Source: Escherichia coli O127:H6 str. E2348/69 (GTDB lineage Bacteria > Pseudomonadota > Gammaproteobacteria > Enterobacterales > Enterobacteriaceae). From it: a stretch of DNA of 64,000 nucleotides. Below, in pieces: positions 15,901 to 18,900 of the stretch. Position numbers: made by a program. The stretch lies in the NCBI RefSeq assembly GCF_000026545.1, contig NC_011601.1; one strand, given 5' to 3'. How positions within the stretch are numbered: position 1 is the stretch's first letter; the number at the start of each line of letters is the position of its first letter.

Positions 15901-18900
15901 GCTTTTGTTTTTATCTTTGCCCTCCGTTTTGGTAATCTGAAGTCATAGGTTATTTGACCTGGAATGTTTGTTAATCCAATGAATGGATGGTTAATCTATG
16001 AAACTGAAAAAACTCCCTGGGTTCAGTTTAGGATTTATTGCTCTGGCGGTGGGTAATGTATATGCAACACAATTGTTGGATTATTATAGTATAATTTCCT
16101 ATATAACCGATGAAGAATCACCGATTGAAATTAGAAATAATACTTCTACAAGTAATGGAGAGTATCTAATCACTTAAGACGAAAGCCATGCTGTGAAAGT
16201 GGATGACGGTGTAACTGGATATATACATAATGCCAGTGTGATGACTAGTGGTGATGGATCTTATGGTATTTCTGTTGATAGCCAAAACAAAGTATTATAT
16301 ATAAGCGATAGCAATATTAAGACCTCTGGAAGCGTATCTGATAAAGAAAATGGAGGGATAACAGCCAGCGCAGTAGTCAGTGAATTTGGTGGCACCATCG
16401 TTATGAATGGTGATAATTCAGTCGAGACGAGGGGGCATATTCAGCGGGATTTTTAAGTCAGGTTAATGATTCTGGGACTGTGGAAAATAACACCAGTCTT
16501 GAAACCACAGATAAAACGAACATTGTTACCTATGGGGAAAATGCAGTAGGAGTTCTTGCATGTTCAAGTCCTGGAGAGTCTCGAACATGTGTTGATGCTG
16601 TAGGTGATGAAGTTTGTGATTCTAACAGTTACGAAGTTATTAGCCGTGCTGATTTAAAAATGAATGGTGGTTCCATAACAACTAATGGTTTTAATAGCTA
16701 TGGTGCTTATGCTAATGGGAAAAAAGCATATATTAATTTAGATTATGTGGCACTTGAAACTGTGGCTGATGGAAGTTATGCAGTTGCTATTCGACAAGGT
16801 AACATTGATATAAAAAGTTCTATTACAACAAATGGCACTAAAGCCCCCATTGCAAAAATATACAATGGTAGAGAGTGATTTTTTTCCTATGTCACTTCAG
16901 AATCAACAGAAACGTCTACCCCCGTCCTGCGACCCGAAGCTGGCAGTTACGTCGCCAACCTGGCAGCCGCTAACATTCTTTTTGTTATACGTCTGAACGA
17001 CCGTGCGGGTGAAATGCGCTATATCGATCCTGTAACTGAACAGGAGCGTTCAAGCCAACTTTGGCTACGTCAAATTGGCGGGCATAATGCCTGGCGTGAC
17101 AGCAACGGACAGTTGAGAACGACCTCGGCACAGGCCATCTGGATGGGCGTCGATCATAATGCGCATACGGAAGCCAATGGCTCACGTATTGAGAATGACG
17201 CAAATAACAACATCCAGAGCCGACTTGGTTTCCGCACCTTTATTCGTACTCAGGAGAAAAACAGCGGTCCGCACGGTGACGACTTTGAACCTTTTGTTGA
17301 AATGAACGGGATCCATAACAGTAAAGATTTTGCTGTCTCAATAAACGGTGTGAAAGTTGAACAAGACGGGGCGCGTAATCTGGGGGAAATGAAACATGGC
17401 GTAAATGGCAATCTGAATCCGGCGGCCAGCGTCTGGGGTAATGTGGGCGTGCAGCTGGGTGATAATGGCTACAATGACACCGCAATGATGGTGGGCCTGA
17501 AATATAAGTTCTGATCCCGCCCGTTAGCTAAAAAACCGCGTCGAATTCATCGACGCGGTAACATATGAAATATTATTTTTTGCCGATAGCACGCATGGTG
17601 TCATCAATTGCCGTGATCAACAGCATTTGCGGATCTTTAGCGCAAACCTGATTCAGTTTTTCTACCACTTTGGCGCTCAGTTCCGGAGATTGCTCAATTT
17701 TTAAATCACGGCTGGCAACGCTGGCATTACCCATTACCGCAACAATTTCTGCAACCTGTGCGCTGTCAGTTTTTGCCATTTCGTTGGCTTCTGCGCAAGT
17801 AATATAGGTTTCTGATGGCAAACCGTTCTTAATATTGTAGTCCTGCGCCCAGGTCATTGGTGCGAAAACAAACAGACCCGCCAGTAAAGCAAATTTTTTC
17901 ATCATCATTCCTTATTTCATTTTACCCAGAATTGCACCACCCGTACCGCCAATCACGGCACCTTTAATCGCCCCTTCGAGGCCATTGCCGGTCAGAACGC
18001 CAGTGACAGCACCAACGGCGGCACCCACTTTTGCACCTTTACGCGCATTTTTACCGTCGCGGCCTTTTTCTGTTACTGCACCAACACCAGCGCCAACAGC
18101 TGCACCTTTCAGTACGCCATTAACACCATTGCCAGTAAGTAAACCAACGCCTGCACCTAGCAATGCACCTTTCGTGGTGCGATTCATATCCGCCATTGCT
18201 GGCGTGGAGCAGAACAATGCTGAGATAAGCCCGAAGGCGAGTATTTTTTTCTTCAACTTAGTTGTCCGGTATTAAGTAAGTTGCACACACAATAATTTCG
18301 TCTTCAATTAAGATCTGCTTAACTAAAGAACGCTCGCTATTATTCAGATAATTCAAAATGAGCGTGACTGTGATGATAGGAATTATGTTTTTTACGGGAA
18401 TGAGAATAATCTCAAATGAGAAATAACTCATTGATTGACAATATTTTTATTCAAGAAGTGTCATTGACTGTTAACGCAATGTTGTAAAGGTAAGATAATC
18501 TGATTTATCAATATTATTGTGTGATTGTTATGTGAGCAGAAGATATTCATTAGCAACGATTACATTAGTCATTTTATTTTGTGGACGGCCTCATTGTCGA
18601 AAAATAAGCGTACGACAGTATTATCAGAAAAGAGTGATTTTTTATCCAACAACACTTCAGCGCACTGCGTTTAAAAAATACCTCTTTCTTATACGGGATA
18701 TCATCATTTCATCATGATGTCTTTGATGAGCGGTGAACACAATACATTTGCGCTGTCTCTTCAGGATGAATCCCCTGGTCTGGTTCCTGCGGGCTGATGT
18801 TGCAGCAGAGCTAAGGTCACTTAGACGCTACTATCATTTATCCAATGCATGGAATCGAAGTCAGTCGATACCCGCAGTATATATCGTGAACTGGGCGCAA

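Follow-up and report, generated by a model that had tools for sequence, protein, structure and literature searches.

The ymgG–ycgI spacer of Escherichia coli E2348/69: two annotated small genes that probably overlie regulatory DNA

Gene content of the spacer

The DNA considered here is a stretch of 64,000 nucleotides (the window) of E. coli EPEC E2348/69, to which it is 100% identical, and our subject is the spacer that separates ymgG from ycgI. On the left the spacer is bounded by the TTG start codon of ymgG at 18256 (minus strand); ymgG itself (17912-18256, minus strand) encodes a glycine-zipper protein and is the first gene of the ymgG-ymgD operon, according to RefSeq and K-12 annotation and the Pfam family Gly-zipper_YMGG. 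On the right lies the remnant gene ycgI (plus strand), of which the first ATG-initiated ORF begins at 18849 and the RefSeq pseudogene at 18832. A preliminary description of the locus spoke of an AT-rich spacer of 0.6 kb, and its length is indeed 592 bp with 35.6% GC; over 200-nt intervals the GC content falls to a minimum of 30%, compared to approximately 45-54% in the flanks.

That description also listed a single ORF of at least 60 aa, a Cys-rich and basic frame of 66 codons which it left unassigned, and it judged the small-gene content unresolved, noting that K-12 annotates ymgI and ymgJ in this neighbourhood. Our ORF scan likewise returned one frame of that length only, at 18517-18717 (plus strand; TTG start, 66 aa), and its translation contains four Cys, 12 Arg/Lys and two Asp/Glu residues, as the earlier characterization would have it. 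K-12 does annotate both small genes, at exactly the position of the spacer, and the proposed alignment to K-12 identified orthologs at 93% and 92% amino acid identity, which settles the gene content as ymgI at 18258-18431 (minus strand) and ymgJ at 18532-18717 (plus strand). The 66-codon frame has an assignment after all, being ymgJ itself (61 aa from GTG 18532) extended by five upstream codons from TTG 18517. The suggestion that the small genes might occupy shorter, unlisted frames holds for ymgI, whose 57 codons fall below the 60-aa cutoff, but not for ymgJ, which is the listed ORF.

ymgI is a RefSeq CDS and the ortholog of K-12 b4593 (YP_001165314.1), with 52 of 56 aligned residues identical and the same position, strand and ATG start; its stop codon is 1 nt from the ymgG start on the same strand, a layout that matches K-12. 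ymgJ, also a RefSeq CDS, of 61 codons, corresponds to K-12 b4594 (YP_001165315.1), with 56 of 61 residues identical, and is located upstream of ycgI, some 100 bp away from ymgI, which is on the other strand. A third small ORF, of 39 codons (18678-18797, plus strand; WP_001131456.1 in RefSeq), overlaps the 3' end of ymgJ. Both ymgI and ymgJ are ordinary, previously annotated entries, and the spacer encodes nothing new.

Chance alone could account for ORFs of these lengths. When the spacer was shuffled 2000 times with its dinucleotides preserved and scored for start-to-stop ORFs, the longest reached at least 66 codons in 25% of shuffles and at least 57 codons in 43%, and two ORFs of at least 57 codons occurred together in 8%. 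The three small ORFs had no match in Pfam or NCBIfam, the Pfam set used apparently being without PF28591; a precomputed match to this family (YmgI) is present on all 48 database homologs of YmgI, 98%-identical ones included. No Rfam family reached its gathering score in the spacer, the best match being a eukaryotic snoRNA model (24 bits against 50 needed, E=0.38), which we attribute to chance. A consensus promoter and terminator scan of the spacer found no enrichment of promoter-like matches (five against 4.6 expected), and it missed the ymgGD promoter proposed below.

Sequence evolution of ymgI and ymgJ

Polymorphism was surveyed in 12 diverse, phylogenetically spread E. coli strains. On the basis of the 11-17 variable sites that each small gene offers at a within-species diversity of 2-4%, pN/pS was 0.97 for ymgI (seven nonsynonymous to four synonymous sites) and 0.63 for ymgJ (12 to five), where the other five frames of the ymgJ DNA span 0.30-1.27; neither annotated frame behaved better than the alternative frames. 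In the adjacent operon YmgG is identical in all 12 strains, with 10 synonymous and no nonsynonymous polymorphisms (pN/pS 0.00), and ymgD has one nonsynonymous to nine synonymous sites (pN/pS 0.02). The combined 1:19 ratio of ymgG and ymgD differs from that of ymgI (Fisher p=9e-4) and from that of ymgJ (Fisher p=6e-5), and nucleotide diversity in ymgJ, at 0.037, equals the synonymous diversity of ymgG/ymgD.

All 12 strains keep the ymgI frame intact, and 10 keep that of ymgJ. Within ymgJ, a run of A-T6 (18637-18643, plus strand) has suffered two independent 1-nt deletions in other lineages, the A being missing in ST131 O25b:H4 and the run shortened to T5 in O157:H16 Santai, and RefSeq labels both alleles 'frameshifted'. 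The open ymgJ frame is restricted to the ymgG-ycgI locus; it is closed by TAA at codon 12 in all six paralogs upstream of ypjA, and by TAA at codon 2 in E. albertii. For ymgI, outgroup sequences were reached through YmgI homologs: E. albertii has no ymgI ATG, E. ruysiae and L028 have an ATG followed by TAA at codon 3, and the L028 frame carries an additional premature stop. Versions of 48-53 aa have been called in E. albertii and E. ruysiae, and these sister-species "homologs" begin at non-ATG codons after in-frame stops. Across species, conservation in the ymgI frame peaks at third positions, at 92%.

Read directly, the DNA ahead of the ymgI ATG, of the ymgJ GTG and of TTG 18517 contains nothing that resembles a Shine-Dalgarno sequence. 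The supplementary tables of an acid-stress Ribo-seq study are without entry for ymgI and ymgJ. Transcripts cover the ymgJ region in four of seven conditions (PMC3734233), and some begin at 18435-37, ahead of either candidate start. A FlhDC SELEX peak that names ymgJ lies between ymgJ and minE and was classed as non-promoter; it is irrelevant to the spacer. Held against what would be expected of functional protein genes, ymgJ displays neither purifying selection nor a frame that stays intact across strains, paralogs and sister species, and ymgI displays no purifying selection, no start codon on the mRNA (see below) and no ORF conserved in the sister species.

The control region of ymgG-ymgD

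Both ymgG and ymgD are listed in the RcsB regulon table (PMC2731931), and a LolCDE inhibitor induces both along with genes of the Rcs regulon (PMC5105897). A search with the published RcsB box consensus, TN(G/A)GAN4TC(T/C)NA (PMC7913699), returned a single match in the 64-kb window, where 2.6 are expected by chance. This match, the palindromic TGAGAATAATCTCA at 18401-18414, is a candidate activator site of the ymgGD promoter; relative to the ymgG start it occupies -158 to -145 in five Escherichia lineages and in the 12 E. coli strains, and varies at degenerate positions only. A candidate -10 hexamer, TATCAT (18373-18378, minus strand), follows 22 nt downstream of the box, and reads TATCAT in E. 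coli and E. albertii and TATTAT in E. ruysiae and L028; the promoter has no recognisable -35 hexamer.

Published RNA-seq assemblies place the 5' end of transcript b1171-b1172-b4593 at 1222324/5 (U00096.2), equivalent to window 18369/70, in five of seven conditions (PMC3734233), a position imprecise by several nt; the ends of such assemblies are not dRNA-seq TSSs. The candidate -10 sits 3-4 nt upstream of this end, and the candidate box is centred approximately 38-42 nt ahead of the start, whether this is taken from RNA-seq or inferred. In the same data every assembled 5' end (18394/5 and 18369/70; PMC3734233) falls 36-61 nt downstream of the ymgI ATG. With the RNA-seq 5' end at 18369/70, the ymgGD 5' UTR ahead of the ymgG start codon is approximately 112-113 nt long (18257-18370, minus strand).

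This leader is strongly conserved. Across four species 86% of its sites are invariant, compared to 49-60% at third positions of ymgG and ymgD and 48% farther upstream, and the same four-species comparison reveals no codon periodicity in the ymgI frame. Within the leader, an imperfect 12-bp inverted repeat or hairpin, TCTTTAGTTAAG-N5-CTTAATTGAAGA (18301-18329, minus strand), has an invariant stem in five Escherichia sequences, with variation confined to the 5-nt loop. RNAalifold analysis of the ymgG leader found no compensatory changes in this stem and no convincing covariation, and because compensatory changes are absent an RNA hairpin and a protein-binding site are indistinguishable here. We also considered the repeat, as TTAAG-N5-CTTAA, for an RcsB box, which it is not; it misfits the published consensus, and the true match is the one at 18401-18414. 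Repression by OmrA/B acts through the ymgG 5' UTR (2026 preprint). With the 5' ends of the K-12 sRNAs, RNAduplex paired OmrB best with -26 to -9 (window 18282-18265), a candidate site only; the OmrA duplex with ymgG mRNA scored -12.2 kcal/mol, and 64% of shuffled mRNAs did at least as well.

From these features we would regard the left piece of the spacer, 18257 to approximately 18431 (minus strand), as the control region of the envelope-stress operon ymgG-ymgD, comprising the putative RcsB box, the candidate -10, a TSS at approximately 18366-18370, equivalent to K-12 1223098-1223102, and the conserved 5' UTR of some 113 nt with its hairpin. Binding of RcsB to the 18401-18414 box is predicted from the motif and its conservation, and the exact -10 and TSS should be taken as provisional assignments. 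The ymgI frame would then read through the ymgGD promoter and leader from an ATG upstream of the transcript start, and ymgI is most likely a chance ORF lying over them.

The remains of an autotransporter gene

The right piece of the spacer, 18474-18832 (plus strand), which holds ymgJ and the 39-codon ORF, can be recognised by paralogy as a 5' flank, promoter and leader included, that once belonged to an autotransporter gene of the YpjA/EhaD type and is now orphaned. Its identity to the approximately 390 bp immediately ahead of intact ypjA is 87.5%, and the same flank DNA directly precedes intact autotransporters of 1136 aa in strain TUM1223 (NZ_CP135722.1, 1096367-1099777) and of 1475 aa in E. 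albertii. A BLAST comparison with the intact TUM1223 allele yields two collinear blocks, window 17507-18832 and 18832-19900, around a 3,095-bp gap. The corresponding deletion begins 29 bp before the start codon and ends at approximately codon 1022, has its junction at 18832, and took with it the RBS, the start codon, the signal peptide, the passenger and most of the barrel. What is left is the ycgI pseudogene (18832-19174, plus strand), identified by BLAST and Pfam as the last ~105 codons, or beta-barrel end, of the autotransporter; it is 96% identical to the 3' end of ypjA, contains two 1-nt frameshifts, and matches the Pfam Autotransporter beta-domain at model positions 164-254 of 255. It does not qualify as a type Va (classical) autotransporter, which has a signal peptide, passenger and full C-terminal beta-barrel in one ORF. 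Approximately 8% of E. coli genomes retain an intact gene at this locus, as does E. albertii, and the autotransporter start is preceded by AGAGGA.

The right piece would accordingly represent the former promoter and leader of an autotransporter adhesin gene, joined by the 3.1-kb deletion to the last ~105 codons to give ycgI; as a consequence of this fusion the flank would now drive nothing. ymgJ would be a frame that happens to be open where the flank drifts freely, in its distal part.

The proximal part behaves differently, and raises the question of whether some 190 nt of leader, the 39-codon ORF included, form a functional cis-regulatory unit of YpjA-type genes, either through a translated uORF or as a structured or protein-bound 5' UTR, of which the window would preserve a copy decaying since the deletion. 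This is a possibility that we hold only tentatively. In its favour, the proximal leader is near-invariant among six copies upstream of ypjA that differ elsewhere, and shares long identical blocks with E. albertii (for instance the 33 nt GCGCTGTCTCTTCAGGATGAATCCCCTGGTCTG) despite a coding region only 71-78% identical. The ORF frame is kept upstream of intact ypjA and in E. albertii, at 34-39 codons (39 in E. coli, 34 in E. albertii), and at the dead ymgG-ycgI locus the leader is more variable, with a diversity of 0.046, a 3-nt insertion and, at the first codon of the ORF, ATA in the window where 11 other strains have ATG; variability of this kind is what a relaxed constraint would produce. Against it, pN/pS in the ORF is 1.48 at the ymgG-ycgI locus; in strain 2013C-4282 the ORF carries a frameshift, and the ypjA downstream of it is apparently intact; RNAalifold detects essentially zero covariation in the autotransporter leader (covariation term +0.4, several broken pairs); zero Rfam families match; and gene conversion could explain the high identity between the two E. 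coli loci.

Discussion

We consider it probable that the ymgG-ycgI spacer consists of two pieces of regulatory DNA set back to back, the ymgGD control region and the derelict autotransporter flank, with one chance ORF annotated on each. Judging from the patterns of substitution and frame disruption, neither ymgI nor ymgJ is likely to yield a functional protein. In spirit, then, the alternative raised in the preliminary description, an untranslated 66-codon ORF, is probably correct.

A bolder reading, to which we give rather little credence, is that both halves of the spacer harbour undescribed cis-regulatory elements beneath the small-gene annotations, a switch in the ymgGD leader together with uORF control in the autotransporter leader. 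On the left, the invariant 12-bp hairpin or palindrome might be a specific switch of the Rcs- and Omr-controlled envelope operon; on the right, the leader of ~190 nt with its 34-39 codon upstream ORF might control YpjA/EhaD-type adhesins.

It is less likely still that ymgI and ymgJ are genuine, young, E. coli-specific small proteins, too young for purifying selection to be visible. On this view YmgI would be a hydrophobic or membrane peptide of small size, expressed together with YmgG and YmgD, YmgJ a basic, Cys-containing peptide, and translation would occur at a low level or under special conditions. Young lineage-specific genes can have a pN/pS near 1, and several observations would sit well with this account: annotation of both genes in K-12 and RefSeq, their intact frames in 12 and 10 of the strains, the PF28591 family and the homologs called in sister species, a ymgI stop codon so placed as to suit translational coupling to ymgG, transcripts that overlap both ORFs, and the rarity with which shuffled spacers produced two ORFs of this length. 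However, both genes evolve like alternative frames, and the 3' half of ymgI is conserved at the nucleotide level, most of all at third positions. Furthermore, the ymgI ATG lies outside every assembled transcript of the operon, neither gene has the kind of ribosome-binding sequence that the autotransporter start possesses, the sister-species homologs of YmgI start past in-frame stops, and ymgJ is frameshifted in the very successful ST131 and closed in the paralogs and in E. albertii.

That the whole spacer is functionless, horizontally acquired, H-NS-coated AT-rich DNA in which all ORFs and motifs arose by chance is highly improbable, for while its low GC content, chance-like ORF lengths and unenriched promoter-like matches would agree with this, the left half already contradicts it through the conservation of the 112 nt upstream of ymgG far beyond neutral sites, the conserved positions of the RcsB box and -10 element, an experimental 5' end, and documented regulation via the ymgG 5' UTR.

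If two pieces of regulatory DNA, each bearing a chance ORF, do make up the spacer, then two K-12 'y-genes', which annotation has carried into thousands of genomes and even a Pfam family, appear to be ORFs overprinted on regulatory DNA, and the argument for re-annotating ymgI and ymgJ is the useful output of this analysis. What transcriptome reports describe as 'ymgI regulation' would most simply originate in the ymgGD 5' UTR. Two further results are a concrete promoter model, open to test, of the ymgGD operon with its Rcs and OmrA/B regulation, and the recognition that ycgI derives by deletion from an adhesin gene.

Comparison with known systems

The closest counterparts are the K-12 genes themselves, described as 'uncharacterized proteins', which have the position and strand of those in the window, the same 57 and 61 codons, and the same start codons, ATG and GTG. 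On NC_000913.3 the ymgI ATG is at 1223163 (minus strand), the ymgJ GTG at 1223264 (plus strand) and the TTG upstream of it at 1223249. The K-12 spacer is 97% identical to that of the window; there are four residue differences in YmgI and five in YmgJ, the nucleotide differences being nearly all nonsynonymous, and the extension of ymgJ from TTG 18517 is possible in both genomes alike.

The proposed ymgGD promoter resembles RcsB-activated promoters of the envelope-stress regulon, of the osmB, ivy and rprA type, which have a box beside the -35, in that its box is a perfect palindromic match to the consensus and is conserved across the Escherichia lineages compared, and in the published RcsB dependence of its operon; unlike them, its candidate box lies inside an annotated CDS (ymgI) and its -35 hexamer is unrecognisable.

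As spurious or overprinted small ORFs of enterobacterial 5' UTRs and intergenic regions are a category rather than a curated family, ymgI and ymgJ can be compared to it by resemblance only, and they share its attributes: they are AT-rich, RBS-less and genus-restricted, substitute neutrally and lie over regulatory elements.

The right piece compares most directly with ypjA/ehaD, adhesin-like genes of the AIDA type, whose counterparts of the flank and of ycgI have the high identities (87.5% and 96%) given above. RefSeq gives the intact allele at the ymgG-ycgI locus the name YpjA/EhaD; this allele is 1136 aa long, whereas YpjA has approximately 1526-1528 aa, and the N-terminal halves of the two are only ~38-52% identical.

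Identity of the small ORFs

The 592-bp spacer lies between minus-strand ymgG, whose start is at 18256, on the left and the plus-strand ycgI remnant (from 18832/18849) on the right, and has a GC content of 35.6%, with a minimum of 30% in 200-nt windows. A 901-bp query around it matches three EPEC O127:H6 E2348/69 assemblies at 100% identity, and approximately 5,000 of the species' 5,426 complete genomes contain the region. Its sole ORF of at least 60 aa, at 18517-18717 (+), encodes 66 aa when read from TTG, including four Cys and 12 Arg/Lys against two acidic residues. The preliminary description of an AT-rich spacer with a single Cys-rich, basic ORF of this length was accurate in boundaries, GC content, ORF list and residue counts; it had matched that ORF to neither K-12 gene and left the small-gene content unsettled, and alignment to K-12 decides both points. 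RefSeq annotation of E2348/69, moved to window coordinates by locus + 16599, places coding sequences at 18258-18431 (-), the position of K-12 MG1655 b4593 (ymgI), at 18532-18717 (+), that of b4594 (ymgJ), and at 18678-18797 (+), a 39-codon ORF. The spacer is 97% identical to K-12; K-12 YmgI is 93% identical to the 57-aa minus-strand ORF, and YmgJ 92% identical to the 61-aa GTG-initiated ORF, so that the orthology of both is beyond reasonable doubt. The 66-codon ORF is therefore ymgJ with five upstream codons, while ymgI was overlooked because its 57 codons fall below the 60-aa cutoff, bearing out the suggestion that a K-12 small gene might occupy a frame too short for the ORF track. K-12 annotation already lists both ORFs as genes, so the spacer encodes nothing new in kind, and the feature is ordinary and already known. 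The length of the longer ORF is statistically unremarkable: among 2000 dinucleotide-preserving spacer shuffles, 25% contained an ORF of at least 66 codons and 8% contained two of at least 57.

Selection on the small ORFs

The locus was aligned in 12 E. coli strains, picked across the range of identity, and the ratio of nonsynonymous to synonymous sites in each ORF was compared by Fisher tests with the combined control, ymgG (0:10, pN/pS 0.00) and ymgD (1:9, pN/pS 0.02). All three small ORFs depart from the control: ymgI with 7:4 (p = 9e-4, pN/pS 0.97), ymgJ with 12:5 (p = 6e-5, pN/pS 0.63) and the 39-codon ORF with 11:3 (p = 1e-5, pN/pS 1.48). Read in its five alternative frames, this DNA gives pN/pS values of 0.20-1.97, over which the annotated frames show no advantage, and nucleotide diversity in ymgJ (0.037) equals synonymous diversity in ymgG and ymgD (0.031-0.037). 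Two independent 1-nt deletions in an A-T6 run at 18637-18643 frameshift ymgJ, in ST131 O25b:H4 and in O157:H16 Santai. On reading the sequence, none of the three candidate starts (ymgI ATG, ymgJ GTG, TTG 18517) was seen to have a Shine-Dalgarno-like motif upstream. Young genes can appear neutral; judged on these sequence comparisons, neither ymgI nor ymgJ probably encodes a selected protein.

Homologs of YmgI occur only in Escherichia and Shigella. E. albertii lacks the E. coli ATG; in E. ruysiae and in L028, a third Escherichia lineage, codon 3 is TAA; the frame in L028 also has a premature stop, and outgroup 'homologs' begin at non-ATG codons. Across four species, 86% of the 112 nt preceding the ymgG start are nevertheless invariant; the figure is 49-60% for third codon positions of ymgG/ymgD and 48% for the 190 nt further upstream. 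Within this block the third positions of the ymgI frame are the most conserved (92% vs 81-84%); the constraint is at the nucleotide level and not on a protein.

A proposed ymgGD promoter and leader

The ymgG-ymgD operon belongs to the RcsB regulon (PMC2731931; PMC5105897), and OmrA/OmrB repress it, acting through a construct that includes the 5' UTR and the first part of the coding sequence (bioRxiv 10.64898/2026.06.26.734639). The only site in the 64-kb window that fits the RcsB box consensus TN(G/A)GAN4TC(T/C)NA (PMC7913699) is the palindrome TGAGAATAATCTCA, which lies within ymgI at 18401-18414. In every one of the five lineages and 12 strains this candidate box occupies -158 to -145 relative to the ymgG start, with variation confined to degenerate positions, and 22 nt later comes a TATCAT/TATTAT hexamer, a spacing that predicts a start near 18366. 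Independently of this prediction, an RNA-seq assembly (PMC3734233) has the b1171-b1172-b4593 transcript beginning at 18369/70 under five conditions and at 18394/5 under two. The ymgI ATG is 61 and 36-37 nt upstream of these ends, so the annotated start codon is absent from the observed mRNA, and reported 'ymgI expression' is most simply the ymgGD 5' UTR signal. Drawing on literature and sequence, with RcsB binding and the exact transcription start as predicted elements, we consider this promoter and leader model very likely.

The leader also contains a 12-bp inverted repeat at 18301-18329 with an invariant stem and variable loop, in which no compensatory changes were found; a candidate Omr pairing site at approximately 18265-18282 was no better than chance. 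Short forward-strand antisense transcripts inside ymgI (18303-18366; U00096.2 1222303-1222366) and a forward intergenic transcript between ymgI and ymgJ (1222400-1222485, approximately 18445-18530) are recorded in the PMC3734233 supplements, and indicate low-level divergent transcription from the AT-rich core.

An orphaned autotransporter 5' flank

Most genomes carry a second copy of 18474-18832, at 87.5% identity, directly upstream of intact ypjA/ehaD. Homology to this flank ends at approximately 18832-18836, beyond which the last ~105 ypjA codons follow at 96% identity with two 1-nt frameshifts, constituting ycgI. In strain TUM1223 the same locus has ymgJ, the 39-codon ORF and then an intact YpjA/EhaD-type gene of 1136 aa; the window aligns with this allele as two collinear blocks around a clean 3,095-bp deletion (junction 18832), which begins 29 bp before the start codon and reaches approximately codon 1022. 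The lost 5' part is present at >=95% identity in ~425 records (~8% of genomes). E. albertii has an intact 1475-aa autotransporter at the same place, and E. ruysiae and L028 are without the autotransporter and all sequence past ~18540-18580. This history of deletion and paralogy is almost certain, and ymgJ therefore sits in a promoter and leader orphaned by the death of their adhesin gene. Where the adhesin gene is still alive the ymgJ frame is not preserved: TAA occupies codon 12 in all six ypjA-upstream copies, and codon 2 in E. albertii, where similarity to the ymgJ body is undetectable. Transcripts of the ymgJ region appear in only 4 of 7 RNA-seq conditions; their 5' ends lie at 18435-18437 or at 18522-18527, only 5-10 nt ahead of the GTG, and one of the assembled transcripts stops mid-ORF (PMC3734233 supplements).

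The ~190 nt upstream of YpjA/EhaD-type start codons (18668-18832; compared loci L003 6165-6397 and L025 5551-5790) are near-invariant among ypjA copies, share long identical blocks with E. albertii and are conserved more than the coding region. This leader contains a 34-39 codon ORF, frameshifted at one intact autotransporter locus, and RNAalifold gave no convincing covariation. That the conserved ymgGD leader hairpin and this leader with its small ORF are undescribed cis-regulators is a residual possibility. The first codon of WP_001131456.1 (18678-18797) is ATA in the window and ATG in most other genomes; 39-40 codon variants labelled 'ATPase' in some RefSeq records (L010 1171-1293; L023 521-641) look like an annotation artefact.

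Distribution and decay of neighbouring adhesins

The autotransporter between ymgI and minE (18832-19174; L015, L020, L025, L026, L028) is polymorphic in both presence and decay. It is intact in TUM1223 (NZ_CP135722.1 1096367-1099777), in E. albertii (L025 1132-5559) and in ~8% of E. coli genomes; the window and K-12 have it with the 3.1-kb deletion, strain cq9 has a version that is shorter still, and E. ruysiae and L028 have none of it, which suggests repeated, independent loss. Approximately 276 records, including O157:H7 genomes (H86-H88, L003), match the spacer only via the ypjA-upstream paralog (query 218-576, 87.5%), and apparently are without ymgI, ymgJ and the ymgG 3' end at this locus. 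The upstream autotransporter ycgH (up to 17514) is a frameshifted fragment in the window, K-12 and several strains, is called intact, as a 'YcgH / ECIAI39_1904 family autotransporter adhesin', in Santai, cq9, 88-3493 and TUM1223 (L010, L015, L018, L019 position 1-11), and is absent between ymgD and ymgF in E. albertii, E. ruysiae and L028. Thus, two independently decaying adhesin genes flank ymgD-ymgG. An E. coli-specific spacer 20-mer also occurs in contigs recorded as Terrisporobacter mayombei (539 bp, coverage 0.74), uncultured Clostridiales bacterium, a MAG and a Collinsella MAG (L004-L007), in a scan with no Escherichia genome among its matches; contamination with E. coli DNA, or chance, probably explains them.

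Interpretation and comparison with known systems

The spacer is best understood as two regulatory regions back to back, each with one probable chance ORF annotated on it: the Rcs/Omr-controlled ymgGD promoter and leader beneath ymgI, and a decayed autotransporter's abandoned 5' region beneath ymgJ. The main product is an argument for re-annotation of ymgI and ymgJ, together with a testable model of the ymgGD promoter. Being without signal peptide, passenger and most of the barrel, ycgI falls outside the definition of an autotransporter. The two closest known systems to the spacer are the ypjA/ehaD autotransporter locus and the RcsB-box promoters of the envelope-stress regulon.
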